Shown: in pieces, positions 1,187 to 32,759 of the stretch
Position numbering within the stretch: the first letter of the stretch is position 1
Layout: each line of letters opens with the position of its first letter
Assembly: GCA_002293845.1 (NCBI GenBank)
Contig: DBEA01000010.1
Coordinates: 565 to 64,564, forward strand
Direction: 5' to 3'
Length of the DNA stretch: 64,000 nucleotides
Source: Patescibacteria group bacterium UBA918
GTDB taxonomy: Bacteria; Patescibacteriota; Minisyncoccia; Phycocordibacterales; UBA918
Notes under the pieces: generated by a model
The model's input: only the letters and a program-made list of their open reading frames with translations
Told to the model about the DNA's origin: nothing
Databases searched by the model: none
Program-made: the position numbers and the translations under genes

Positions 1187-1996
1187 ATGAGGTCTTATAT
1201 ATTCGCGGTCGCGATCATGATGTTCGTCTTGCCGATCGTAGCGACGGCGCAGGCCGGTGGGCTAGTGCCATGTTCAGGTCCGGATTGCACCACTGAGTCG
1301 GTGGTCGGTCTGGTCAATAATCTCATCGACTGGCTCATTTCGGCGCTGGGAGTCATCGCGGTCATCGTGATGGTCTATGCCGGTTTTAAGTTAGTGATGT
1401 CGGCCGGAAACGAGGATGAATGGGGTAAGGCGAAGGAATTGTTCCAAAATGTCATCATCGGCATCATATTGATATTGGCCGCTTGGCTCATAATCGACAC
1501 CGTGTTGAAAGGTCTGACCGGTAAAGGATTGGACGGCTGGACCAAAGAGTTGGCCGCTCCCGTTCCGAATGTGAACAATCCGTCGATCACCGGAAATTCT
1601 AATGTCGCCGGCGCAGGCCAGTATACCGACACAGAGGCACGTCAGGCTTTGGCCGCGGCCGGGATAACGGTATGGGAATCGTCTCCAGGTGCCACTAGCC
1701 TCGCCAATATCAATCAGGCCACGATAAACGAAGCCGTGAGTCTCAAACAGGCTTGTGGTTGTCAGGTGATAGTGACAGGTGGCACGGAGTCCGGAGTTCA
1801 CGCGAGCGGACAATATAGTCACTCTTCAGGTTATAAGATAGATCTCGACGATACATCCGGTCTCAATAATTACATCACGAGCAACTATACCTATGTGGGA
1901 CCACGAAGCGGTGACGGAGCTCTGATGTATCGCTCATCCGATGGCAAGAAAATATACGCTAAGGAAGGGGACCATTGGGACGTGTTGGTGCAGTAA
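1187..1996 (+). CDS. Secreted TrbC/VirB2-like pilin-domain protein with a C-terminal putative peptidase-M15-like (Zn D-Ala-D-Ala carboxypeptidase fold) domain
   Basis: Signal peptide MRSYIFAVAIMMFVLPIVATAQA, then two hydrophobic helices split by a short loop (LISALGVIAVIVMVYAGFKL...VIIGIILILAAWLIIDTVL), as in T4SS pilins. The C-terminal 150 aa carry VTGGTESGVHASGQYSHSSGYKIDLDD, resembling the M15 S-x-H-x-x-G-x-A-I-D zinc-ligand block. Confidence 0.4.
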   Translation: MRSYIFAVAIMMFVLPIVATAQAGGLVPCSGPDCTTESVVGLVNNLIDWLISALGVIAVIVMVYAGFKLVMSAGNEDEWGKAKELFQNVIIGIILILAAWLIIDTVLKGLTGKGLDGWTKELAAPVPNVNNPSITGNSNVAGAGQYTDTEARQALAAAGITVWESSPGATSLANINQATINEAVSLKQACGCQVIVTGGTESGVHASGQYSHSSGYKIDLDDTSGLNNYITSNYTYVGPRSGDGALMYRSSDGKKIYAKEGDHWDVLVQ

Positions 1997-2053
1997 ATTC
2001 GTTAAAAACGAATTTCGAAATGGTATTATGTAGCATATATTCATGCTACGAAA

Positions 2054-2713
2054 ATGAAACAGATAAAGAAGCAAGAAGCGTTTAATTTAAGAAAAAGTGG
2101 TTATTCCTTGAGAGAGATTAGTAAAATGTTAAATATCTCTCAAAGTACAGCCTCTGTCTGGCTCAGAGGTTTGAGGTTGCCCCCTTCTGCGATCAAAGAA
2201 TTGGCAAGGAAGACAGAAAATGGCAGGAGACAAGCTTCGATCGCTAGAAGGGATGAAACGCGCAAGGCCCTAGCAAGCGCAGCGACACTGGCGCAGGAAA
2301 CGAAAAAAAGGGCAAAATATGACAGGGCTGATCTGAAGATAATGTGCGCCATGATCTATCGGTGTGAAGGTTCAAAAACCATGAACGATAGCGCGCTAGT
2401 GTTTACGAATTCAGATCCAGAATTAATATCGTTTTTTCTTAGATTGTTCAGAAAAACCTTTAAAGTAAATGAGGAAAGGTTCCGGGTTTTAGTCCATTTA
2501 CATGACTATCATGACCAAGAAACACAGTTGCGTTTTTGGTCCAAAGTCACTAATATACAACGGTCGCAGTTTTTAAGGCCTTATAAGAAAAGTAATACCG
2601 GCAAGCATAAGAGGTCGAATTACGAAGGGTGTGTTTCATTGCGCTATCACGATGTGAGGATAGCCAGAGAAATACAGGCCTTGGCCAGAATTGTGATGAA
2701 ATCGGGCCTATAG
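2054..2713 (+). CDS. HTH-domain protein with a C-terminal single-motif LAGLIDADG-like endonuclease domain
   Basis: N-terminal HTH (YSLREISKMLNISQSTASVWL). C-terminal LKIMCAMIYRCEGSK resembles the LAGLIDADG motif-2 of the two other HEG ORFs (LRGLIQTDGSV, LRGLYEAEGSL). AT-rich. The TAG stop (2711-2713) lies inside tRNA-Trp. Confidence 0.45.
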   Translation: MKQIKKQEAFNLRKSGYSLREISKMLNISQSTASVWLRGLRLPPSAIKELARKTENGRRQASIARRDETRKALASAATLAQETKKRAKYDRADLKIMCAMIYRCEGSKTMNDSALVFTNSDPELISFFLRLFRKTFKVNEERFRVLVHLHDYHDQETQLRFWSKVTNIQRSQFLRPYKKSNTGKHKRSNYEGCVSLRYHDVRIAREIQALARIVMKSGL

Positions 2714-2774
2714 TTTAATGGTAAAACAGCCGCCTCCAAAGCGGCCGTTCCCTGTTCGAGTCAGGGTGGGCCCG
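2704..2774 (+). tRNA. tRNA-Trp (anticodon CCA)
   Basis: Cloverleaf read by eye: acceptor GGGCCTA/TGGGCCC, D stem GTTT/AAAC, anticodon stem GCCGC/GCGGC with loop CTCCAAA, T arm CCCTG-TTCGAGT-CAGGG, discriminator G. No encoded CCA. Confidence 0.8.
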
Positions 2775-2776
2775 CA

Positions 2777-3673
2777 CTATTTACGCTCCAGAAAAGCGCT
2801 GACTTCAACAGTGATTTTATTGTCGCCGCGATGAAACCATCTGATCTCTCGATCACGTCTCAGCCAGGACATTTGGCGTTTAGAAAACTGCCGGCTCTTT
2901 ATGGTCAGTTCTTCGATCATTTCATTCAAGGGCATGAGGCCGCGAAGATAACGAGAAAGATAACGATACTCAAGGCCAAATTTTTCAAGCCTCTCATGAG
3001 TGACCCCCTTCTTCAGTAGTCGCCTCACTTCCTCTGCCATGCCTGCGTCTAGTCGTTCCAGAATTCTAGTTTTCAATACTTCACCGTGAGTCTCCATATC
3101 TACCATTAATCCGATGGTGAGAATCGCGTATGGACATTCTTTAACCTCTGTCTCCGGGACGCGGCCGAGTGAACGAGCGATCTCAATGGCGCGGATCAGT
3201 CGGCGCGGATTTTCTTTTTCTATAGACTGGGCTCTTGCCGGATCTAGTTTTTCTAATATCTCGAACAATTCGGCGGCACTTTTTTCTTCGAGTTCGGCGC
3301 GCAGTTCCTCGTCGGGCTCAACGTCAGGTAACGACGTTTTGCCTAAGAGAGCATCGATGTAGAAAAAGGTGCCGCCGCAAATTATCGGTAATTTTCCTCG
3401 CGCGATGATGTCGTCGATGGCGAGTAGCGCATCGCGCTTGAAGTCGGCGGCGGTATACACCTCTTTCGGATCGGCGACGTCGAGCAGGTGATGCGGCACA
3501 CCGTCCGTTTCTTTCGGCGTCACTTTGGCCGAGCCGATATCGAGGCCACGATATACTTGCCTTGAGTCGGCCGATATCACCTCGCCATCGAACTTTTTCG
3601 CCAATTCGATCGCCAATCCGGTCTTTCCGGAAGCGGTCGGTCCGACGATGACTATGATCTTAGATTTGGTCAC
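2777..3673 (-). CDS. miaA: tRNA dimethylallyltransferase
   Basis: P-loop IIVIVGPTASGKTGLAIELAKKF and overall MiaA-like sequence. GTG start, with TATATT 7 nt upstream. Confidence 0.85.
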   Translation of the reverse strand: MTKSKIIVIVGPTASGKTGLAIELAKKFDGEVISADSRQVYRGLDIGSAKVTPKETDGVPHHLLDVADPKEVYTAADFKRDALLAIDDIIARGKLPIICGGTFFYIDALLGKTSLPDVEPDEELRAELEEKSAAELFEILEKLDPARAQSIEKENPRRLIRAIEIARSLGRVPETEVKECPYAILTIGLMVDMETHGEVLKTRILERLDAGMAEEVRRLLKKGVTHERLEKFGLEYRYLSRYLRGLMPLNEMIEELTIKSRQFSKRQMSWLRRDREIRWFHRGDNKITVEVSAFLERK

Positions 3674-3731
3674 AAGGGGGAATATACCCCTATGCTGACT
3701 TTTTGTATAGGCTAAGTCGATTTAATTGTAC

Positions 3732-4325
3732 TCAACATATTTGCTCGTTCTCTTTTTTCAAACTTATCTCGGCGATAAATCTATTTACGTCACGAGATAA
3801 CCTCACCGTGTATTTAGGGCGGCTGCTTTTTTGGCTCGCGCTATAAATTTTTGGTTGATAGCCGAGTATTTCCATCATACTCTTCACATCCGTGGCCAGA
3901 TCTAAAATATTATTGGTAAAATTCACCATCTTGTAACCGCGGTCTGAATAGACACTCCCATCTGTCTGTATTAATCCACGAAGGCAAGCTGAGATGTACA
4001 TATTGTCGCGAAATATCCAACCAGGTACTCTGACGTTCTGTTTAAATTTTGAGCCCTTACCCACTTTCCACGGCATATAGATATCTAGTGCGTTTGAATA
4101 CACACTAATGTTGAAATAGGTATCGCGGGGACCGTTTACTTTACTGACTTTATTTTTGGGAAATAGTAAGTTAAGGGCAATACATATATCGTTTTCTATG
4201 CCTGGATAGGCCGCGTCACATGTTATTCGAAGACGTGTGGCACGTTTATTGGGTCTGGATAAATTACCATCGCCCATAGCGACTCCAATGATATATGCCA
4301 AATTTACTTTGGCAGCCATTAGCAT
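3732..4325 (-). CDS. LAGLIDADG homing endonuclease (two-motif, free-standing)
   Basis: Motifs LAYIIGVAMGDGNL and LRGLIQTDGSV. AT-rich. TATAAT 6 nt upstream of the ATG. Lies 35 nt downstream of tRNA-Leu on the same strand. Confidence 0.8.
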   Translation of the reverse strand: MLMAAKVNLAYIIGVAMGDGNLSRPNKRATRLRITCDAAYPGIENDICIALNLLFPKNKVSKVNGPRDTYFNISVYSNALDIYMPWKVGKGSKFKQNVRVPGWIFRDNMYISACLRGLIQTDGSVYSDRGYKMVNFTNNILDLATDVKSMMEILGYQPKIYSASQKSSRPKYTVRLSRDVNRFIAEISLKKENEQIC

Positions 4326-4359
4326 GCCTAGATTATACCCTGGTTGTGCTTCAAAATTG

Positions 4360-4443
4360 TGCCGCGGGAGAGACTTGAACTCTCATGACTGTTTAGGTCG
4401 ATGGGTTTTGAATCCATTGCGTCTACCATTCCGCCACCGCGGC
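4360..4443 (-). tRNA. tRNA-Leu (anticodon CAA), type II with long variable arm
   Basis: Reverse complement GCCGCGGTGGCGGAATGGTAGACGCAATGGATTCAAAACCCATCGACCTAAACAGTCATGAGAGTTCAAGTCTCTCCCGCGGCA. Anticodon loop TTCAAAA, T arm GAGAG-TTCAAGT-CTCTC, acceptor GCCGCGG/CCGCGGC. Close to E. coli leuX. The anticodon stem has one A-C mismatch, or I misread one base. Confidence 0.7.
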
Positions 4444-7575: not shown

Positions 7576-9960
7576 TTACTTCATGAGCGCTACAGCTTCC
7601 TCCACCGTCATTTTCTCGACGTCAGTGTCTGATGGAAGCATGATCCGTTTGAAACCGCGTTTGAAATATCGTCCCGACTTTGATTCGTATACGCTGATCA
7701 TCTTCTTGGTCTTCGGGTGCGGACCGACGTCGCGTACCAAGGTTTCCCCCTTTCGGGTGCCCTTTGGTTTTTTCAATATCTCCAGAGCGCGATCAAAAGT
7801 GATGGTGTAGGGATCGTCGCCGTCTTTAGGTTTGAGGGAACGGAAGTCGCCGGCGTGACCGATGTAAGGACCGAACCGGCCGACGTTGGCGATCACTGGT
7901 TCTCCGGTTTCCGGGTGCTGGCCCAACTCCCGCGGCAAGGTTAGATAGGTGAGCGCTTCCTCCAAGGTGACATCTTCTGGCTTTTTGCCTTTAGGTAAAG
8001 AGGCGCGCCGCGGCTTGGGCGCTTTTTTGCCTGCCCGTACCGCTTTGCCGGTTTTCGGGTCTTTCTTGTCGGGCGTCTCGCCTTGCTGAACGTAAGGCCC
8101 GAATCGACCGTTTAGAACGTAGATCGATTCTCCCGTGTCCGGATGTCGGCCGATAGGTTCTTCGGCTTTCACTTCCGAACCGTCGATCAATCTAGAGCCG
8201 GTACATTCGGGGAAGTCGACGCATGATAGGAACTTGCCGCTCTTGCCCAACTTGATCACCATCGGCTTGCCGCAGATCGGACAGGGGAATTCCGCCGGGG
8301 CCGCACCCAGGTTGGTCTGCTTTTCTATGTCTTCCTTACTGGCCAAGTCCTTGAGGAACGGTCCATAAAAATCGCTCAGAGTCTTAACGTAAGTACGTTT
8401 GCCCTCCGCGATCTCGTCGAGTTCGTCCTCCATCTCGCTGGTGAAAGTGTCGGAGATGTAGGTGGGGAAATGGGTTTCGAGGAAAGTCGAGACGACGTCG
8501 CCGGTGTCGGTCGGGATGAGAGTGCGACCTTGTTTCTCCACATAACCGCGCTGGTTCAGCGTCTCCATGATGGAGGCATAAGTGGAGGGTCGGCCGATGC
8601 CGCGCTTCTCGAGTTCTTTGATCAGTCCGGCTTCGGTGTAGCGGTTCGGCGGCTCGGTGGCTTTCTCTTCGATCTTCACTTCGGCGACTCGGGCAGTATC
8701 TCCGATCTTGACCGGCGGCACCTCGGTGTCCTCGCCGCGCGCGGCCAGGTCGACTTTGAGCCAACCGTCGAAAGTGACACGAGAGCCGTTCACCGCGAAG
8801 TCCGGTATTGTTTCTTTAGAGTCTTTCAAATTGATTGTGATCTTGGTGCGCAATACGAGAGCGTCGGCCATCTGCGAGGACATGGTTCGCCGCCAAATGA
8901 GATCGTATAACGCCTGCTCGTCACCGGTATGTCCGGCGCTTTTCACGTTGGCGTTCGTAGGGCGGATGGCTTCGTGCGCTTCCTGCGCCGACTTACTCTT
9001 GGTTTTGTAGACACGCGGTTGAACATATTTCTCGCCATGTTCTTTGTGAAGGATAGCCAAGATCTGTGACAGCGCCGCCTTGCTCATATTGGTCGAGTCG
9101 GTGCGCATGTAGGTGATGAAACCGTTTTCGTATAGTTTTTGCGCGGCCCGCATGGTGCGCGAGGGAGAAAAGCCGAGTCGTGTCGAAGCGGTCTGTTGCA
9201 GGGTCGAGGTGGTGAACGGCGCGCGAGGCGAACGTTTCTGTGACGCCTCCTTCATATCCTTCACTTCCCATGAGTTGGACTCGCCGATCTTTTTGATTCG
9301 ATCCGCTTCCGAGTGCTCCTTAGGTGTTTCGACGCAGGTAAATGGCACGTCCTTGTGGTCTCCAAGTGTTGTAGGTGCCGTCAAGACGAAATATTTCTCC
9401 GGCACGAAGGCGCGAATCTCGCGCTCGCGCTCCATGATGATGCGGAGAGCCGGCGACTGCACGCGGCCGGCCGAGAGTCCGTAACGAACCTTTTTCCAAA
9501 TAAGACCCGACAGATCGTAGCCGACCAGACGATCGAGCACACGCCGCGCCTCCTGCGCCTCTTTGAGATTCATATCGATCGCTCGCGGATGCTGCAAAGC
9601 TTCCTTTACGGCATCTTCGGTGATCTCATGAAAGACGATGCGTTTTAGTTTCTTGTTAGAGCCTTTGATGAGTTCGGCCACGTGCCAGGCGATAGCTTCT
9701 CCCTCTCGGTCGGGGTCGGAGGCGAGTAGCACGGCATCGGCCTTTTTAGCAGCGGCTTTGAGATCGCTGATCACTTTTTCCTTCCCGGGGGAGACGATAT
9801 AACGCGGCACGAAACCGCCGTCGATATCGACAGCGTCCTTGTTGGACTTCGGGAGGTCGCGCACGTGTCCGACCGAAGACTTCACCATATACCCGGAACC
9901 CAGGTATTTGGCGATGGTCTTGGCTTTCGAGGGCGACTCGACTATGACCAGAGTACTCAT
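7576..9960 (-). CDS. topA: DNA topoisomerase I
   Basis: TOPRIM N-terminus MSTLVIVESPSKAKTIAKYLG, catalytic core, C-terminal Zn ribbons (CPICGKPMV...CVDFPEC). dprA lies immediately upstream in the same orientation. Confidence 0.9.
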   Translation of the reverse strand: MSTLVIVESPSKAKTIAKYLGSGYMVKSSVGHVRDLPKSNKDAVDIDGGFVPRYIVSPGKEKVISDLKAAAKKADAVLLASDPDREGEAIAWHVAELIKGSNKKLKRIVFHEITEDAVKEALQHPRAIDMNLKEAQEARRVLDRLVGYDLSGLIWKKVRYGLSAGRVQSPALRIIMEREREIRAFVPEKYFVLTAPTTLGDHKDVPFTCVETPKEHSEADRIKKIGESNSWEVKDMKEASQKRSPRAPFTTSTLQQTASTRLGFSPSRTMRAAQKLYENGFITYMRTDSTNMSKAALSQILAILHKEHGEKYVQPRVYKTKSKSAQEAHEAIRPTNANVKSAGHTGDEQALYDLIWRRTMSSQMADALVLRTKITINLKDSKETIPDFAVNGSRVTFDGWLKVDLAARGEDTEVPPVKIGDTARVAEVKIEEKATEPPNRYTEAGLIKELEKRGIGRPSTYASIMETLNQRGYVEKQGRTLIPTDTGDVVSTFLETHFPTYISDTFTSEMEDELDEIAEGKRTYVKTLSDFYGPFLKDLASKEDIEKQTNLGAAPAEFPCPICGKPMVIKLGKSGKFLSCVDFPECTGSRLIDGSEVKAEEPIGRHPDTGESIYVLNGRFGPYVQQGETPDKKDPKTGKAVRAGKKAPKPRRASLPKGKKPEDVTLEEALTYLTLPRELGQHPETGEPVIANVGRFGPYIGHAGDFRSLKPKDGDDPYTITFDRALEILKKPKGTRKGETLVRDVGPHPKTKKMISVYESKSGRYFKRGFKRIMLPSDTDVEKMTVEEAVALMK

Positions 9961-17776: not shown

Positions 17777-18481
17777 ATGGCGCATATCTCGTGGAGCAAG
17801 GGTCACACAAAGGATACTCACCCCTCGGTTCGGAAAATTTCCGAGACGATGAAGAAGAGGAAGGTGGATAATTTTGCCGCATGGCGTGAGCAAGCCAAGA
17901 AAAAAGGAAAGTTTAAGTCAGTTTACAAGGCTTTGCCGGAGGGCGGCGACTTAGCCGAGTTGATCGGTGTGATTTTGGGTGACGGTCATATTCAAAAGTT
18001 TCCTCGCACCGAAAGGTTGCTGATCTTTTCAAACGCCAACAACCCGGGCTTTGTAAAGCGTTATGCTGATATAGTGGAAAGGTTGTTTGAAAAGAAGCCT
18101 TACGTGTACAAGCAAACATCGAAGAACTGTATACGTATTAGTCTGTACGAAAAACATATCAGTCAGCGATTAAAGATCCCTACAGGTGCGAGAGGTAAGT
18201 TATATTTCTCGGTTCCGCGTTGGGTTATGCGCGATAAAACCTATGTAAAGCGTTACCTTCGAGGTTTGTATGAGGCAGAAGGAAGTCTATCGTTTCATTC
18301 CGCCACGTACACGCATAAATTCATCTTTTCCAATAGAAACGTGTCGCTATTGAAAAATGTCGAAAGATTGCTTAAAGTACTAGGGTTTTCACCCCACTCA
18401 AACAAAGAGAGTGTCCAACTGTCCAGAAAGGACGAGGTGAAGAAAGCCGCCCAGTTGCTACGGTTCAGAGTCTACAAATAA
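17777..18481 (+). CDS. LAGLIDADG homing endonuclease (two-motif, free-standing)
   Basis: LAELIGVILGDGHI and LRGLYEAEGSL. TATTAT 6 nt upstream of the ATG. The stop lies 6 nt before tRNA-Gln. Confidence 0.8.
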   Translation: MAHISWSKGHTKDTHPSVRKISETMKKRKVDNFAAWREQAKKKGKFKSVYKALPEGGDLAELIGVILGDGHIQKFPRTERLLIFSNANNPGFVKRYADIVERLFEKKPYVYKQTSKNCIRISLYEKHISQRLKIPTGARGKLYFSVPRWVMRDKTYVKRYLRGLYEAEGSLSFHSATYTHKFIFSNRNVSLLKNVERLLKVLGFSPHSNKESVQLSRKDEVKKAAQLLRFRVYK

Positions 18482-18487
18482 ATATAT

Positions 18488-18558
18488 TGCCCGGTGGTGT
18501 AAAGGTAGCACGCATGGTTCTGGCCCATGAAATCGAGGTTCGATCCCTTGCCGGGCAG
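18488..18558 (+). tRNA. tRNA-Gln (anticodon CTG), with U1-A72 as in bacterial tRNA-Gln
   Basis: TGCCCGG...CCGGGCA acceptor, anticodon stem CATGG/CCATG with loop TTCTGGC, T arm CGAGG-TTCGATC-CCTTG. Confidence 0.75.
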
Positions 18559-18613
18559 CAAATTTGAGCGACGCTTGAAGAGCATCGCTGTAACATCCGG
18601 TTGTTTCAAAAAA

Positions 18614-19740: not shown

Positions 19741-20109
19741 ATGAGAGTTTTTGTGTCGGTCGCCCTCGTGGCCCTCCTCGCTTTCTTGACCGTAGCGACG
19801 CTCGGTGTCTATCTTTCTTCCGCCGCGCCCGATCACCATGACGCGGGCTGTCCCCTCATGGTCGGACAGGCGACGATCTGTGTCGGCTCGCCGCTAGCGC
19901 ACCTCGATCACTGGCAGGATGTCTTTGTCGCGGTGATCGTGAATACGTTCGCGCTCTTCGCGATGGTGATTTTGGTGGTTACCGTCTTGCCGTTCAGGCT
20001 TCCGGACAAGAGACGCGCGCGCGTCGATTCGCGTCCGCCCGAACCTGACCGTCCGCCTCTCTTTCAAGAACTTTTTTCACAAGGAATACTTCATCCTAAA
20101 GCGCCGTAG
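19741..20109 (+). CDS. Membrane protein with His/Cys cluster (putative metal-binding)
   Basis: Two TM segments flank PDHHDAGCPLMVGQATICVGSPLAHLDHWQD. TATAAT 6 nt upstream of the ATG. Confidence 0.45.
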   Translation: MRVFVSVALVALLAFLTVATLGVYLSSAAPDHHDAGCPLMVGQATICVGSPLAHLDHWQDVFVAVIVNTFALFAMVILVVTVLPFRLPDKRRARVDSRPPEPDRPPLFQELFSQGILHPKAP

Positions 20110-20150
20110 TGTCGCCGCCGATCTATTATCGATTAACTAATTCTAAATTC

Positions 20151-20741
20151 ATGGAAAGAAACACTATCGTCGTCGGCTTAGTCGCTCTGCTTCTCGGTTT
20201 GGGCACCGGTTACCTCGTTTGGAGCACTAGCGTGCCCGCCGAGGATGGCTTCGGACATCGGATGTCCGATGGTTCAATGATGGATCAAGACATCGATCGG
20301 CACTTTATCGTTCAGATGATCCCGCATCATGAAGGCGCGATCGCGATGGCCAAGATCGCGCTCGAGCGTTCGAAGCGGCCGGAGATCTTGTCCTTAGCAA
20401 ACGGCATCATCGAAGCGCAGGAAAAAGAGAACGGCGACATGCGCGCTTGGTACCGCTCTTGGTTCGGTGCCACTCCTCCGGAGGGAGGCATGGGGATGAT
20501 GCATATGGGCGGGATGGAAGGAGACACGAACGTGCTACAAAACGTGTCTGAAGCGCATTTCGACCGCGAATTCATCGAACAAATGATCCCGCATCATGAG
20601 ATGGCCATAATGATGGCCGAGATGCTTCGGGCTTCCACCGTCCGCGACGAGATGAAGGAATTGGCGAACAACATCATCACGTCGCAGTCGCGAGAGATCG
20701 AGATGATGCGCGGTTGGCTCACTAGTTGGTACGGCCAATAA
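20151..20741 (+). CDS. DUF305 (CopM-like) periplasmic metal-binding protein with a Met-rich segment
   Basis: Two copies of FIxQMIPHHExAIxMA and MGMMHMGGMEG. The start is moved to ATG 20151 (MERNTIVVGLV signal peptide). Confidence 0.7.
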   Translation: MERNTIVVGLVALLLGLGTGYLVWSTSVPAEDGFGHRMSDGSMMDQDIDRHFIVQMIPHHEGAIAMAKIALERSKRPEILSLANGIIEAQEKENGDMRAWYRSWFGATPPEGGMGMMHMGGMEGDTNVLQNVSEAHFDREFIEQMIPHHEMAIMMAEMLRASTVRDEMKELANNIITSQSREIEMMRGWLTSWYGQ

Positions 20742-20753
20742 TCTCCTTGGTAT

Positions 20754-22268
20754 ATGAAAAATTCATATCTGCTCGTGGGAGCAGGGCTGGCATTCGTGAT
20801 CGTCATAACGGGCGTCATGCTTTACCTAGAGCCCAAGAAAGATTCTTCAGTCTCAGAGAAAATCTACGTGGCCCTAGAGGGAGATGGCGCGGTCGGTGTG
20901 ATCGATGGGAATAAAAGCAAGCTCGTGAAGACAATTTCGCTCACCGACGAACGAACCGGCACCATGTACATGCCGCACAACGTGCAGGTATCACTCGACG
21001 GGAGTGTCGTATGGGTGACCGCGAATGCGATGGCCGAAATGGAGCACCAAAGCTTCAGATTCCTCAAGACGGCGCAGGCGGACGGAGGTCACGAAGATTC
21101 CGAGACGGAAAGCGATCAGCTTATCGCGATAGATCCGAGCACGGATATGATCGTCCGGAGAATCCCGATAGCGATCGGACAGCATCTCGCTCATGTGGTG
21201 CAGTCTGCCACCGACTCGGCGGTTTTTGTAGCGGCGCAGGAGACCGACATGATCTACGTGGTCGATGCGGATTCTATGACGCTAGAACGAAGCATTAAGT
21301 TGCCGGAAGGTAGCGGCCCGCACGGAATGCGCCTTTCGCCAGATGATCAGACTCTCTACGTCGCCCTCATGAGCGGAGAGGCGCTTGGTATGGTCGACAT
21401 CAATTCGGGGACAGTCGATAGTCAACCGCTTAATGGCGGTGCCGTGCAAACGGCGGTTACGCCAGACGGTTCGCGAGTCGCCGTTTCGGTGTATGACTCC
21501 TTGAGTATTGGAGTATACGATACGGGGAAGAGGTCACTCTCGTATGTAAAGCTCCCCGAGGGATCGCAAGGTCCAGTGCAACTGTACCCGACTAAGGATT
21601 CGCGCTTCGTGTACGTGGCCGACCAGGGGACGCTGAATGGGCGCCGTGCGAACGATAAGCTTTTCAAGATCGACCTTGAGACGCTGGCGGTCGCCGAAAC
21701 GATCGAGGTCGGAAGAGCTCCTCATGGTGTCGCCCTCAATAGAGGCGGTGATAGGGTTTATGTGACCAACCTCGAAGACGGTTCGGTTTCCGTGGTCGAC
21801 ACCGGGGCGGCGCAGGAGATCGCGAGAGTCAAGGTAGGTAAAGAACCGAACGGGGTGAGCGTGTGGAACGGGAGAGAGGATCGATCTTCCGTCGGAGCGC
21901 TCGAAGGCGTAAAGATCACCGTATACAAATCGCCGACCTGCGGATGTTGCGGGAACTACGTCGCCGAACTTAGACGACAGGGCGCGGAAATCACCGTGGA
22001 GGAGATCTCGGAGGCTGCTCTTACGGAGAAGAAAGCCGCGCTCGGCGTGCGCCCCGAACTGGAAAGTTGTCACACTTCGGTTATGGACGGCTATGTGATC
22101 GAGGGGCATGTCCCTGTGGAAGCGATAGCAAAACTACGCGCTGAACGGCCCCCGCTCGCAGGTATCGCATTGCCCGGTATGCCGGCAGGAAGTCCGGGCA
22201 TGTCCGGAATCAAATCTGAACCCTTTGCCGTGCAAACGCTCGAAGGAGATCTATTCGGGAACTTCTGA
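20754..22268 (+). CDS. Fusion protein: YVTN-type beta-propeller repeats plus C-terminal DUF411 (CopG-like CxCC copper-resistance domain)
   Basis: Repeated YV.D/YVTN blocks. The C-terminus VYKSPTCGCCGNYVAELRRQG...ESCHTSVMDGYVIEGHVPVEAIAKL...GIALPGMPAGSPGM matches the DUF411 pattern YKSP.CGCC...SCHT...GY.IEGHVP...P.MP.GSPGM. Confidence 0.7.
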   Translation: MKNSYLLVGAGLAFVIVITGVMLYLEPKKDSSVSEKIYVALEGDGAVGVIDGNKSKLVKTISLTDERTGTMYMPHNVQVSLDGSVVWVTANAMAEMEHQSFRFLKTAQADGGHEDSETESDQLIAIDPSTDMIVRRIPIAIGQHLAHVVQSATDSAVFVAAQETDMIYVVDADSMTLERSIKLPEGSGPHGMRLSPDDQTLYVALMSGEALGMVDINSGTVDSQPLNGGAVQTAVTPDGSRVAVSVYDSLSIGVYDTGKRSLSYVKLPEGSQGPVQLYPTKDSRFVYVADQGTLNGRRANDKLFKIDLETLAVAETIEVGRAPHGVALNRGGDRVYVTNLEDGSVSVVDTGAAQEIARVKVGKEPNGVSVWNGREDRSSVGALEGVKITVYKSPTCGCCGNYVAELRRQGAEITVEEISEAALTEKKAALGVRPELESCHTSVMDGYVIEGHVPVEAIAKLRAERPPLAGIALPGMPAGSPGMSGIKSEPFAVQTLEGDLFGNF

Positions 22269-29130: not shown

Positions 29131-30414
29131 ATGCCAAAGAAACAACGGAACATCATCGCCTATGTCTCTAAGGTGTCTCCCGACATCATTGCCGACATCC
29201 GGACGTGGGAAAAAGAGACCGGTGAGAGGTATCGGATCATGTTGATCGAGAACTCCGCACGGAAGATGACCAAAAGACAGTCTGGTGCTACCTTGGACGG
29301 GGTCAATATCGTGCTCTCGGTCGATTTTACCAGCGACTCTGCTCTTCAAGAGGCGCTGGCTCCATACCAAGATCAGCTGTGCGCCATCACTAGCCGTGTG
29401 GAATCGTATTTGGCCGATTTCATCAAGATCATACCGTTCGTTCCGTATCTACATACGCCCACGCCTGAATCGCTCCAATGGGCTAGCGACAAGCGCTTGA
29501 TGCGTCGACATTTTCGAGTGGCAGATTCCTCTATTACTCCTAAATACGCTTTGGTCAAGGATGCTAGCGATACAGAACTCGAACGTGTGGTCGGCCAGAT
29601 CGGTTTTCCGTTGATACTCAAGCCTACCAACTTAGCCCAGAGTCTGTTGGTGAACGTTTGTCATCATCAGGATGAATTGCGTAAGGTGGCGAAAGAGGTA
29701 TTCAGAGAGATAGAAAAGATCTACGCTGAAAATGGCCGGACCGAGCGCCCGCGCGTGCTAGCCGAGCAATACATGGAAGGTTTGCAGTATTCGATCGATG
29801 CCTATGTGTCCGCTCGCGGCAAAGTGACCTGTTGTCCTTTAGTTCGCCAGAAGACCGGACACGACATCGGCCGCGACGATTTTTTCGGATATCTGCAGTC
29901 GACTCCGACCGCGCTATCGTCGGCCACGGTGAAAAAAGCCGAGGAGGTGGTTAAGCGCGGAGTCCATGCCCTAGGTCTTCGTAACACTACTGTCCACGTC
30001 GAATTGATGCGCATCGACAATACTTGGAAGATCATTGAGATCGGCGCGCGCATCGGAGGATTCCGACCGCAGCTCCACCGTCTTTCTTGTGGCATCAATC
30101 ACGGCATGAACGATGTGCTGGTCCGTATGGGACGCCAACCGGTCGTGCCGCGCCGCTGCCGCCGCTTCGCGGCGGCGATGAAATACTATGCCAAGGAAGA
30201 GGGTGAGATCGTCAGTATTTTGGGACTTAAGAAGATCGAGAAACTAACTTCCTTCCACAAGATAGAGATGCGCAAGAAGCGCGGCGACCGGAGCGTTTTC
30301 GCTAAAAACGGCGGCGGCGCTATTTTCGTGCTGTATTTAGTGAACGATTCTCGTTCGGACTTGTTGGCAGATATTAGACGAGTTGAGGAGGCGGTACGGG
30401 TAAGAGTGGCATGA
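29131..30414 (+). CDS. ATP-grasp domain ligase (large, with N-terminal extra domain)
   Basis: GFPLILKP, EQYMEG, IEIGARIGG ATP-grasp blocks. Confidence 0.65.
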   Translation: MPKKQRNIIAYVSKVSPDIIADIRTWEKETGERYRIMLIENSARKMTKRQSGATLDGVNIVLSVDFTSDSALQEALAPYQDQLCAITSRVESYLADFIKIIPFVPYLHTPTPESLQWASDKRLMRRHFRVADSSITPKYALVKDASDTELERVVGQIGFPLILKPTNLAQSLLVNVCHHQDELRKVAKEVFREIEKIYAENGRTERPRVLAEQYMEGLQYSIDAYVSARGKVTCCPLVRQKTGHDIGRDDFFGYLQSTPTALSSATVKKAEEVVKRGVHALGLRNTTVHVELMRIDNTWKIIEIGARIGGFRPQLHRLSCGINHGMNDVLVRMGRQPVVPRRCRRFAAAMKYYAKEEGEIVSILGLKKIEKLTSFHKIEMRKKRGDRSVFAKNGGGAIFVLYLVNDSRSDLLADIRRVEEAVRVRVA

Positions 30415-30421
30415 TGTCAGT

Positions 30422-31294
30422 ATGAAGATCGCGATAATGACCTCACGTGTGATAGAGGAGATCAAGGGACTCACTGAAGAGTTGCGGACCCGCGGACACG
30501 AGGTAACGCTTTGGCCGCTTGATCAAATCAAACCAGAAATGTTCGTCGACGGATCGCTAGCTACTGAGCTGTCTCGGTTCGATCTTGTTTATTATCGTTC
30601 AGGATTTTCCGATGCCGGAGCCTTCGAACTGGGTCGGTTACTAGAAAAGACGCCGGGTCGTCTGATCAATAGAGCCGTCTTTAGACCGCTCACATCCAAC
30701 AAGATCCATCAAGCCATCGCTTCCATCAAATGCGGCATCGCCATTCCGCCGACTTTTATAGGTCGAAATGTTTCCTTTGATACTTTAAATAAAGAGTTCG
30801 GTCTACCTTTTATATTAAAGGCCGCGCACGGTATCCAGGGCGATAAAGTATTTTTGATCCACGATAAAGACACTTATAATAAGCGACTGGATGAGGTATC
30901 GAGTGAAGTGATGTTTCAGAAATTCATCCCTAACGGCGGCGACTACAGGGTTTTTGTATTGGGAGGCGAGGTTCATGACATCTTCAAGCGCGTGGCCGCC
31001 GAAGGTAATTTCAAAAACAACATGGCCCTTGGCGCACGAGGAGTACGAGTGACCGATGTGACGATGCGTAAGAGGTTGGCGGCGATCGGTACTACCATAG
31101 CAAAAAGCATGGAAATCGAGATTGGAGGCATTGATGTCATAGAATCGTCTGAGGATGGACAGTTGTATTTTCTAGAAGTGAATGTCAATCCAGGATGGAG
31201 AGGACTCGATTCTACTTTAGGCGGAAACACCGCTGCTACCGTGGCGGATTATTTTGAACGTCTGCTCAAATCATCCAGCACCACATTGCTATAA
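30422..31294 (+). CDS. RimK-like ATP-grasp ligase
   Basis: GLPFILKAAHGIQGDKVFLI, YRVFVLGGEV, YFLEVNVNPGW. Confidence 0.7.
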   Translation: MKIAIMTSRVIEEIKGLTEELRTRGHEVTLWPLDQIKPEMFVDGSLATELSRFDLVYYRSGFSDAGAFELGRLLEKTPGRLINRAVFRPLTSNKIHQAIASIKCGIAIPPTFIGRNVSFDTLNKEFGLPFILKAAHGIQGDKVFLIHDKDTYNKRLDEVSSEVMFQKFIPNGGDYRVFVLGGEVHDIFKRVAAEGNFKNNMALGARGVRVTDVTMRKRLAAIGTTIAKSMEIEIGGIDVIESSEDGQLYFLEVNVNPGWRGLDSTLGGNTAATVADYFERLLKSSSTTLL

Positions 31295-32142
31295 ACTCTC
31301 TCCACGTCGAAACCTGCCGCCGGACTAAAAATGTCCATTTGTGGCGCTTTATTGACCTCAAAGACAAGAGGTCCTCTTTCTGTTCTTACTAGATCAACGC
31401 CAGCTACCCGCAGTTCGGCCTTCTCGGCAGCCCCGATGCATATCGATTCCTCTTCGGCGGATATGGGTATCTTTTCCGGTTTGCCTCCTTGCGATACGTT
31501 GTTGTAAAACCCGTCGGAGCTAGATCGTTTGATAGCCGCGATGATCTTACCATCAAACACGAACACTCGAATATCATGGTCGTTCGGTATATATTCTTGT
31601 ATGAGCGTAAGCTCCGAGTCTTGTTTTATGTGTGTCTCTAAGCTAGCTTTGTCTTCCACTTTCCACACGTTTTTTCCCTTTGAACCGGTTTTTTTGACTA
31701 CGACCGGAAATTGCAATCGCTGTTCAATGTAGGTTTTATTTTTTTCGTATGAATGAGGTGTCACGATAAGAGTGTTAGGTACCTTGATGCCATTTAGAGG
31801 TAAAGATACCATCATTGTGATCTTGTCTGCCGTCTTATCAGAGACCAGGTTCGCTCCATCGATGAAGATCGGCACCTTCTCTTGTAGTATCCGACCGATC
31901 AGATAGGTTCGATAAGTATCTTTGTTGGTTCTCTTTATTAGGTAGGCCGTGTCATTGGTCGGCAAGGGCGCGTTATCATGTATCACGCATACAACAGAGT
32001 CCGATTCGTACCCGATCGAAATGATACAATCTCTAGTCAAAACGTTTTCTGTAGATATTTCTTGTTCAGCCGCTAAAGTGCGAAATAGTTCAAAGAAATG
32101 AATCGGATCATCGCCATTCATCACAATTATATGCTTGATCAT
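31249..32142 (-). CDS. RimK-like ATP-grasp ligase (AT-rich; convergent, overlapping the previous gene by 46 nt)
   Basis: QFPVVVKKTGSKGKNVWKV, IRVFVFDGKII, VFEVNKAPQ. Confidence 0.65.
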   Translation of the reverse strand: MIKHIIVMNGDDPIHFFELFRTLAAEQEISTENVLTRDCIISIGYESDSVVCVIHDNAPLPTNDTAYLIKRTNKDTYRTYLIGRILQEKVPIFIDGANLVSDKTADKITMMVSLPLNGIKVPNTLIVTPHSYEKNKTYIEQRLQFPVVVKKTGSKGKNVWKVEDKASLETHIKQDSELTLIQEYIPNDHDIRVFVFDGKIIAAIKRSSSDGFYNNVSQGGKPEKIPISAEEESICIGAAEKAELRVAGVDLVRTERGPLVFEVNKAPQMDIFSPAAGFDVERVYSNVVLDDLSRRSK

Positions 32143-32198: not shown

Positions 32199-32759
32199 AT
32201 GATCCGTACTCGTGATTTCGCCGTGTTTTCGGTCGCGCTGGTGTTTCTACTTTCCGTATTGACGGCCACGGTGGCTTATGATCTTTGGGGAACGTCCGGA
32301 CAGGTAGCCGCCGTTGTCAAATTCGCCGATAATGCGCCGGTCGAAGGGGCGGTGGCCGACAATAAAGACATCGATCGAGAGGGTAACATCGAAAGGTTGA
32401 GATCCAAGATCGCGGCCGGGGAGGGTGACAGCCGAGCCGGGGCGCCGGTATTTACTTCGGTCGACGATATTCCCGCGAATGATACGGTCACGTCGACCGA
32501 CGACTCTCCGGCCGAATCGGTGATGATCGGCAATACCATGGATGGCGGAGCGCTTTTCAGTGATGGGTTATGGCGCTTCATCGGATTCGGGTCTTATGAA
32601 CAGATCGGTATGGCCCTAAACGGCACGCCGATCTTCGGCGCGCGCGCTGACAGCATGTCCCTCGACGCTTGCGGAGGTGTCGACGATGGTTCGGGCTATA
32701 AACTTTACTTGCAGACGAACAGGGAAGTGGATGCGGCATGCTTCACGCAAGTTCGGTGA
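32199..32759 (+). CDS. Secreted hypothetical protein
   Basis: TM/signal segment AVFSVALVFLLSVLTATVAY. TATAAT 6 nt upstream of the ATG. Confidence 0.5.
   Translation: MIRTRDFAVFSVALVFLLSVLTATVAYDLWGTSGQVAAVVKFADNAPVEGAVADNKDIDREGNIERLRSKIAAGEGDSRAGAPVFTSVDDIPANDTVTSTDDSPAESVMIGNTMDGGALFSDGLWRFIGFGSYEQIGMALNGTPIFGARADSMSLDACGGVDDGSGYKLYLQTNREVDAACFTQVR

Follow-up and report, generated by a model that had tools for sequence, protein, structure and literature searches.

Three neighbouring ATP-grasp ligases as a candidate stepwise peptide-ligation module in Patescibacteria

A 64,000-nucleotide (nt) stretch of contig DBEA01000010.1 from Patescibacteria group bacterium UBA918, referred to below as the window, carries three ATP-grasp genes side by side: g1 (29131-30414, forward strand, 427 amino acids [aa]), g2 (30422-31294, forward strand, 290 aa) and g3 (31249-32142, reverse strand, 297 aa). 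We propose that they form one linked module for stepwise peptide ligation, in which g1 would be the core ligase, g2 and g3 would have accessory roles and the product would probably be short and acidic; we judge this proposal about equally likely to be right or wrong. A first-pass annotation made from the sequence alone had described the cluster as a candidate peptide or polymer ligation system. That suggestion gained strength in the present analysis, mainly because a ligase or peptidase gene adjoins g1 in 47 of 56 related loci and because g1 is paired with a RimK-like gene even where the rest of the neighbourhood is different. The finding stays within known enzymology and is somewhat more structured than the first-pass annotation had it.

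Results

g1 is a conserved core gene flanked by a variable cassette

Eighty species-level genome loci anchored on g1 were fetched, their open reading frames (ORFs) were called and clustered, and linkage was counted in the 56 related loci that extend at least 3.5 kb on both sides of g1. The g1 family is large. A word-indexed search returned more than 773 homologs, which are 78-100% identical in the near clade and ~50% identical across Paceibacteria, an exhaustive search yielded 185 representative clusters at E ≤ 1e-30, and g1 was recognisable in at least 147 species-level genomes. Detectable relatives numbered 17 for g2 and about 15 close ones for g3. Locally, g1 is also the most conserved gene, with 79-87% identity in near relatives. 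Patescibacteria have tiny genomes with few biosynthetic enzymes, and the retention of g1 at this level of identity in so many of them suggests that the gene is important. The ratio of nonsynonymous to synonymous divergence (dN/dS) was usable only for the pair L017-L018, as comparisons with the window were saturated and g3 contains Ns in one of these two loci; it was ~0.05-0.06 for g1 and g2 (g2, ~0.06, under purifying selection), values that are rough since dS is saturated in this pair as well.

The common gene order is a methyltransferase, DsbA, an optional cassette, g1, an optional cassette on the other side, a YHYH-like gene, sometimes a PolB-exonuclease-like gene, a 165-aa family and then a glycoside hydrolase family 1 (GH1) gene, beyond which lie a membrane protein, a GH42-like protein and DUF8173. 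The cassette genes stand directly beside g1, on either side and on either strand, and almost exclusively encode enzymes that make or break amide bonds. RimK-like genes occur in 35 of the 56 loci (two copies in 7), an ATP-grasp protein like the G domain of CphA in 8 (matching positions 213-448 of cya_phycin_syn), a Mur ligase like the CphA M domain in 3 (L016, L041 and L048; positions 479-860, E = 2.6e-45), QEGLA/MATCAP-like metallopeptidases in 4 (63 bits) and a RimB-like retropepsin in a single locus (63 bits). An unannotated family of 265 aa, cl18, is present in 6.

The stand-alone M-like proteins have Mur_ligase_M and C domains and adjoin g1 at L041:6545-9969, L048:7617-9816 and L016:8674-9930. 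In L041 and L048 they lie beside the G-domain-like ATP-grasp protein and form a split CphA-like pair; in L016 the M-like protein is alone. The cl18 proteins (~265 aa) fill the partner slot beside g1 in 13 loci (for example L068:1221-2015, reverse strand, and 12 others) and share the invariant motif H-G-x-D-x-N-P-Y-G...K...C; searches of Pfam, NCBIfam, PDB profiles and PADLOC returned nothing for them. In the Kaiserbacteria clade with ~60% identity, efp lies divergently beside the g1 ortholog in L009 (7333-7974, reverse strand), L019 and L020, and RimB-like and MATCAP-like genes occupy the opposite side of g1 in L009 (RimB-like gene at 9331-9750) and L019. A further MATCAP-like gene is found at L085:7636-8964. 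In L011, a Kaiserbacteria locus where g1 stands without a cassette, a tandem pair of Peptidase_M14 (carboxypeptidase) genes and a SET-domain gene are found at 1675-3859, 5-6 kb upstream of g1.

The linkage extends beyond synteny

In L092 and L094, a g3-like RimK gene begins 1-8 nt after a g1 ortholog of 43-44% identity, and the surrounding genes (glutamate dehydrogenase [GDH], PBP2, GreA and AspRS) include no other gene in common with the window. The GDH gene is divergent from the pair (L094:4359-5606 and L092:4353-5603, both reverse strand), a possible hint that glutamate is a substrate. Distant members of the family also carry informative fusions. The g1 relatives P0339 and P0323 end in a PF05618 RimB-like domain (55 and 44 bits), and P0371 has a weak match to the same domain at its N-terminus. 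These fusions agree with the adjacency of g1 and RimB-like genes in L009 and L019, and they parallel a RimB-RimK hybrid known from the literature; RimB itself trims Glu from poly-Glu tails, stimulates poly-alpha-Glu synthesis and is specific for polyglutamate (PMC11957791). The non-syntenic pair, the non-random content of the cassette and the RimB-like fusions together argue for a genuine link between g1 and the RimK-like genes, beyond mere synteny or a shared insertion hot spot. Two other relatives, P0354 and P0379 (768 aa; ~30% identity to g1), are fused to GT4/GT1 glycosyltransferase domains, a hint that glycans may be the substrates of some family members.

g1 has the fold of L-amino-acid ligases

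All three genes are assigned to the ATP-grasp superfamily by Pfam matches that exceed the gathering score, and the coordinates and lengths given by the first-pass annotation agree with ours. g1 groups by fold with the L-amino-acid ligases (LALs) and g2 and g3 are RimK/LysX-like; none of the three reaches the cutoff of an equivalog model. For g1, the match to PF13535 (ATP-grasp_4) was clear (1e-20) and that to LAL_C2 weak (22 bits; cutoff, 29.4). A profile of the g1 family matched BacD at 5.7e-15 and BL00235 at 5.6e-12, with alignment to BacD through the motifs KPT.LA.S and IE.(G/A)AR..G. The NCBIfam equivalogs BacD (38 bits vs a cutoff of 850) and DdaF (28 vs 840) were far from reached.

An AlphaFold2 model of g1 (mean predicted local distance difference test [pLDDT] score, 86.5) was searched with Foldseek. 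The best match was 3vot (E = 3.8e-28; template modelling [TM] score, 0.75-0.78), BacD followed at a TM score of 0.77, and RizA was matched as well; the top entries 3vot, 3vmm, 3wnz and 4wd3 gave TM scores of 0.68-0.78 over ~430-490 columns. Judged from this model, g1 belongs to the LAL fold group, with an N domain, a central ATP-grasp domain and a C domain, although its identity to L-amino-acid ligases in the structural alignment is only 17-18%. The first-pass annotation had credited g1 with an extra N-terminal domain. Because the model superposes over its whole length on BL00235, BacD and RizA, this segment is the ordinary N domain of the fold. F311 of g1 is the aromatic residue at the position of BacD W332, the role of which is indicated by the title of PDB entry 3wo1.

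The family is unusually basic. The net charge of g1 is +19 and the family median is +23, within the top ~8% of local ORFs, and the positive charge lies mainly in residues 201-427, the C-terminal half. A net charge of +19 is likewise seen in the CphA-G-like partners. Such basic enzymes are compatible with an anionic chain as the substrate.

g2 and g3 are RimK-like and appear catalytically competent

Both accessory proteins match PF08443 (RimK; 7.5e-26 for g2 and 5.6e-36 for g3). Against TIGR00768 (rimK_fam; cutoff, 143.4 bits), g3 scored 146.1, just above the cutoff, and g2 scored 120.2, below it. g2 aligns end to end with the RimK structures 5zct/7qyr. The AlphaFold2 model of g3 (pLDDT, 92.3) had RimK 5zct as its best Foldseek match (7.7e-20), followed by LysX/ArgX and then by the graspetide ligases PsnB and AMdnB. 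The two proteins are only 28% identical to each other.

The residues K100, K141, R189, N213, D248, E260 and N262 (E. coli RimK numbering) are invariant in 23 g2-type and 22 g3-type sequences. In RimK, a positive belt of arginines (R8, R64, R96, R98 and R102) binds poly-Glu and guides the acidic S6 or poly-Glu chain, and R189 binds the terminal carboxylate of the acceptor (PMC10375531). In both clades, non-basic residues stand at four of the belt positions (R8, R96, R98 and R102), and R64 is kept in 14 of 23 g2-type and 5 of 22 g3-type sequences. The net charges of g2 and g3 are 0 and -5. g2 and g3 look like competent ligases that add discrete residues, not processive poly-Glu tailing enzymes.

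Several specific assignments were tried and rejected. The S6--L-glutamate ligase model NF007764 gave 60.5 bits for g2 and 81.3 for g3 (cutoff, 331), and the arginine belt is missing. LysX/ArgX (TIGR02144) gave 73 and 98 bits (cutoff, 275.6), with no LysW-like ORF found, and GshB (TIGR01380) gave 51.5 and 37.1 bits (cutoff, 299). Graspetide maturase models (TIGR04185/TIGR04187) gave 22-27 bits against cutoffs of 350-425, with no precursor ORF, and the cyanophycin synthetase equivalog gave ~32 bits against 850. MptN and CofF models also failed by wide margins. The S6 glutamylation, graspetide and LysX readings that the first-pass annotation had named are therefore not borne out by the models, nor was a gene for any of the corresponding substrates found near g1 in the sequences searched.

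Gene overlap and origin of g3

The stop end of g3 is at 31249 and g2 ends at 31294, so that the C-termini of both proteins are encoded by a convergent overlap of 46 nt (31249-31294, both strands). The identical 46-nt overlap is found in the three related genomes L013, L017 and L018, even though the proteins there are only 54-59% identical to those of the window. A scan for terminator or promoter structure between the convergent g2 and g3 gave nothing above the shuffled expectation. The gaps between genes around the cluster are 75, 7, -46, 56, 70 and 55 nt; because that between g1 and g2 is only 7 nt, these two genes are probably co-transcribed.

The mean GC content of the 69 genes in the window is 0.530 (standard deviation, 0.042). 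With a GC content of 0.437 (z = -2.19), g3 is the lowest of the cluster and the fourth lowest in the window. The three genes below it are a LAGLIDADG gene and a helix-turn-helix (HTH) gene, both of mobile type and beside tRNA genes, and a diacylglycerol kinase gene; a second LAGLIDADG gene ranks immediately above. The AT-richness of g3 noted by the first-pass annotation is thus real, but it is modest, and g2 is also low (0.473, z = -1.35; g1, 0.526). Separate acquisition of g3, which the annotation had drawn from this drop, is not supported in that form. In the RimK-like gene tree there are two deep, ancient Paceibacteria clades, g2-type and g3-type, and 7 of 8 two-copy loci have one copy from each (the exception is L067), in tandem, convergent or g1-flanking arrangements on either side and strand of g1. 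The two-clade tree, the one-per-clade distribution and the conserved position and overlap led us to reject a recent foreign origin of g3 alone.

Turnover of the accessory genes around g1 is nevertheless indicated by the sequence comparisons. g2 and g3 are 54-59% identical to those of near relatives vs 79-87% for g1, and in L012 and L015 the RimK slot is occupied by a member only 26-29% identical to g2. The partner sets within the window's own clade comprise RimK-type A plus B, A alone, the Mur-like protein alone, and A plus cl18. RimK-like genes are also GC-poor, especially in genomes of higher GC content. Taken together, these observations point to replacement or exchange of accessory cassettes among Paceibacteria around a stable core.

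Search for a substrate gene

All ORFs of the window and of 95 fetched loci (96 sequences, 1.5 Mb) were searched by phmmer, with S6 from E. coli and B. subtilis and LysW from T. thermophilus as queries; the negative outcome is limited by these query sequences and by the flank length of ~10 kb. No S6 or LysW homolog was found within ~10 kb of g1 in any of the 96 sequences, so g1 is not consistently adjacent to rpsF or another known substrate gene that could explain the cluster. Within the 64-kb window, phmmer with the same S6 sequences against all ORFs found no rpsF. No free-standing small ORF exists in the 28.9-33.4 kb region, where every ORF of at least 20 aa overlaps a large gene, and none of the window's ORFs has an acidic C-terminal tail. 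The statement of the first-pass annotation that neither a precursor peptide nor rpsF is nearby was thereby confirmed. The window contains no RimB or RimA gene either. Finally, PADLOC returned zero matches for g1, g2, g3, the two downstream hypotheticals and the cassette families.

Surroundings of the cluster

The neighbours upstream and downstream are a DsbA-like protein (Thioredoxin_4, 4.6e-27; DSBA, 3.6e-20, Pfam), a 186-aa protein with a transmembrane anchor and a 165-aa hypothetical protein, in agreement with the DsbA-like oxidoreductase and secreted hypotheticals of the first-pass annotation. The 186-aa protein (32199-32759, forward strand) is a secreted or membrane-anchored protein with a weak YHYH match at the family level, short in comparison with the family median of ~260 aa; the gene that follows g1 (or the cassette, where there is one) is YHYH-like in 56 of 82 loci. 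The PolB-exonuclease-like gene (PF10108) follows the YHYH-like gene in 40 loci and is missing from the window's clade.

Nearly identical contigs and homologs with names assign the window to Candidatus Kaiserbacteria / Paceibacterota. The remainder of the window is ordinary chromosome, with genes for TopA, RelA/SpoT, SerRS, Dus, DprA, ParB, GroEL, SecY and RNase J. Three low-GC genes (0.41-0.45) at 3732-4325 (reverse strand), 17777-18481 (forward strand) and 2054-2713 (forward strand) encode two LAGLIDADG_3-domain proteins and one HTH protein. Each adjoins a tRNA gene (tRNA-Leu, 4359-4443; tRNA-Gln, 18488-18559; tRNA-Trp, 2704-2775), and they may be free-standing elements of the homing-endonuclease type. 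Also present are a T4SS_pilin-domain protein (1187-1996, forward strand) and a possibly metal-related gene pair (20109-22268, forward strand) that encodes a DUF4142/DUF305-type protein and a beta-propeller+DUF411 protein.

Discussion

A stepwise ligation module and the points against it

In the proposed mechanism, g1, g2 and g3 would make up one functionally linked, chromosomal and ribosome-independent peptide-ligation module that is typical of Paceibacteria, within the candidate phyla radiation (CPR). In the g1 reaction, as with other ATP-grasp ligases, a carboxylate would be converted to an acyl-phosphate and then coupled to an amino acid; g2 and g3 would go on to lengthen that chain by single residues. 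The most likely product would be an oligo- or poly-amino-acid that is short, acidic and rich in Glu/Asp. It would be either free, as are poly-alpha-glutamate and cyanophycin, or present as a C-terminal tail on a protein encoded elsewhere; we lean slightly towards the free product. The folds, the intact catalytic residues, the conserved linkage and the turnover of the cassette are direct observations, from which we infer that the enzymes act in succession on one product, that this product is acidic and in what order the steps occur. Consecutive ATP-grasp ligases are known to build a peptide in rhizocticin synthesis, where RhiM acts and then RhiC (PMC13579937). In other lineages the g1 core would be paired with CphA-like G and M modules or with chain-trimming peptidases of the RimB-like and MATCAP/QEGLA-like types; the module in the window consists of three ligases only.

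A number of observations weigh against this proposal. In 9 of the 56 loci no partner adjoins g1, so that g1 can work by itself or draw on partners encoded elsewhere. Synteny across the region is strong in Paceibacteria, and inherited gene order or an insertion hot spot could explain some of the co-location. The RimB-like and MATCAP-like matches score below the curated equivalog cutoffs, and the RimB-fused relatives are only 30-33% identical to g1. The high net charge of g1 is circumstantial, since binding to nucleic acid or to an acidic glycan would fit it equally well. Lacking the arginine belt, and being neutral or acidic, g2 and g3 are unlikely handlers of a long polyanion.

Relation to known ligation systems

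The cluster resembles several characterised systems and coincides with none. It shares with RimK/RimB the RimK fold and all catalytic residues of g2 and g3, the logic of an ATP-grasp residue adder with a dedicated removing peptidase, and the association of RimB-like proteases with the g1 family, by adjacency to orthologs or by fusion to relatives, which mirrors that of RimB with RimK (PMC11957791). However, the RimB-like protease is coupled here to the LAL-fold g1 and not to RimK, g2 and g3 have no arginine belt and fail the S6-ligase equivalog, no link to rpsF was seen and the window has neither RimB nor RimA. With the L-amino-acid ligases BacD/YwfE, BL00235 and RizA, g1 has in common the three-domain fold, both motifs and the aromatic F311, and the RhiM/RhiC pair provides a precedent for consecutive ligases that build a tripeptide (PMC13579937). 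In contrast to these enzymes, g1 is only 17-18% identical to them, is unusually basic (+19 to +23) and is encoded outside any natural-product cluster, by a chromosomal gene that is widely conserved in a symbiont lineage with reduced genomes; its partners are RimK- and CphA-type ligases and peptidases, not genes for precursor biosynthesis or export.

The comparison with CphA1 is based on sister loci, which fill the g2/g3 slot with stand-alone G-like and M-like proteins (together in L041 and L048, M-like only in L016), and on the shared idea that two different ligase modules build a poly-amino-acid. Unlike CphA1, the G and M modules come from separate genes and have no counterpart of its N domain, and their scores of 60 and 155 bits fall far short of the equivalog cutoff of 850; the window contains neither module, and no cyanophycinase gene was seen. 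Like LysX/ArgX, g2 and g3 belong to a RimK family whose members act on a terminal carboxylate, and they match LysX models and structures, but a LysW-like carrier was found neither in the window nor in the fetched loci, and LysY/Z/J/K genes were not seen. The graspetide maturases of the MdnC/PsnB type share the ATP-grasp fold, with PsnB and AMdnB among the lower-ranked structural matches of g3; the best matches of g3 are RimK and LysX instead, the maturase models scored only 22-27 bits against 350-425, and no precursor-peptide ORF is present at the cluster.

Alternative explanations

Possible, though doubtful in our view, is a wider assembly system composed of ATP-grasp-type enzymes throughout. 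Here the basic LAL-fold enzyme would have become RimK-like by convergence and would make an acidic chain or tail, RimB/MATCAP-like peptidases would trim it, and plug-in ligases that are rapidly exchanged (RimK-type A and B, the split CphA G and M modules and cl18) would vary what closely related symbionts make.

We consider it unlikely that the ligases extend the C-terminus of a protein encoded elsewhere, such as S6, elongation factor P (EF-P) or a cytoskeletal protein, from which the peptidases of sister lineages remove the tail. Such a cycle would resemble that of RimK/RimB on RpsF or of TTL/MATCAP on tubulin. In E. coli, rimK is not adjacent to rpsF, and the absence of an acceptor gene nearby is thus not decisive. 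In L009, L019 and L020, efp adjoins g1 divergently. RimK, LysX and TTL act on protein C-termini, and the carboxylate-binding R189 is invariant in g2 and g3 (PMC10375531). In addition, the RimB-like and MATCAP/QEGLA-like partners and fusions come from families whose characterised members trim protein tails (PMC11957791; Pfam description). However, the search of 96 sequences revealed no rpsF or LysW homolog within ~10 kb of g1, and no window ORF has an acidic tail. The enzymes themselves also fit poorly: the LAL-fold enzymes that have been characterised use free amino acids or small peptides as substrates, and g2 and g3 are missing the arginine belt and fail the S6-Glu ligase equivalog (60 and 81 bits vs 331). 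The CphA-like G and M partners suggest that the polymer is free.

Decoration of an envelope glycan or of the cell wall is still less probable. According to this explanation, g1 would amidate a carboxylate of an envelope precursor (for example, a uronic acid or a muropeptide-like molecule) with an amino acid, and the accessory ligases would add residues to a stem or side peptide, in analogy to pseudomurein or peptidoglycan side-chain ligases. The fusion of P0354 and P0379 to GT4/GT1 glycosyltransferases agrees with it, but these relatives are only ~30% identical to g1. Syntenic neighbours such as DsbA, the secreted YHYH-like protein, GH1, GH42-like and the polytopic membrane protein suggest an envelope context, as does PBP2 near the g1-RimK pair in L092 and L094; the synteny is heterogeneous, however, and in L092 and L094 it is lost while the ligase pair is kept. 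The Mur-ligase-like partner in L016, L041 and L048 fits the M domain of cyanophycin synthetase far better than MurE (155 vs 73 bits) and starts at the M domain, without the UDP-binding N-domain. Finally, g2 and g3 do match the pseudomurein ATP-grasp model NF053643, but at a negligible 17-22 bits against a cutoff of 500.

The three enzymes could also be independent and co-located by history, with g1 as a housekeeping enzyme (for example, a dipeptide ligase) and the RimK-like genes as passengers of a hot spot. The solitary g1 in 9 of 56 loci, its far higher conservation, the patchy distribution of partners on the g1 tree, the low GC content that g2 and g3 share with the mobile-type LAGLIDADG and HTH genes, and the divergent RimK slot member of L012 and L015 (26-29% identity to g2) would all accord with this. 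Nonetheless, we find it improbable, and the weakest of the explanations that have evidence in their favour. The inserted genes are non-random, being almost all amide ligases and peptidases, from five identifiable families plus the uncharacterised cl18, and they may stand on either side of g1 yet always immediately beside it. Furthermore, the g1-RimK pair persists at 1-8 nt spacing in a context without any other common gene, and relatives of g1 carry a fused domain from a protease family that is a partner of RimK. An anti-phage defence system was rejected, as no PADLOC-DB model matched.

Implications

We return to the stepwise peptide-ligation module. No description of such a system in Patescibacteria was found in the literature, although an earlier report of similar neighbourhoods in other phyla is possible. 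Should the genes turn out to encode an ordinary dipeptide pathway, the result would be a useful but unremarkable annotation. With an acidic peptide polymer or a protein tail as the product, RimK/RimB- and cyanophycin-type chemistry would be extended to a new fold and a new phylum, and cl18 and the bacterial QEGLA/MATCAP-like proteins would gain a function. In the wider assembly system considered above, the product could be a variable peptide polymer, at the surface or in storage, that matters for the interaction of these symbionts with their hosts.

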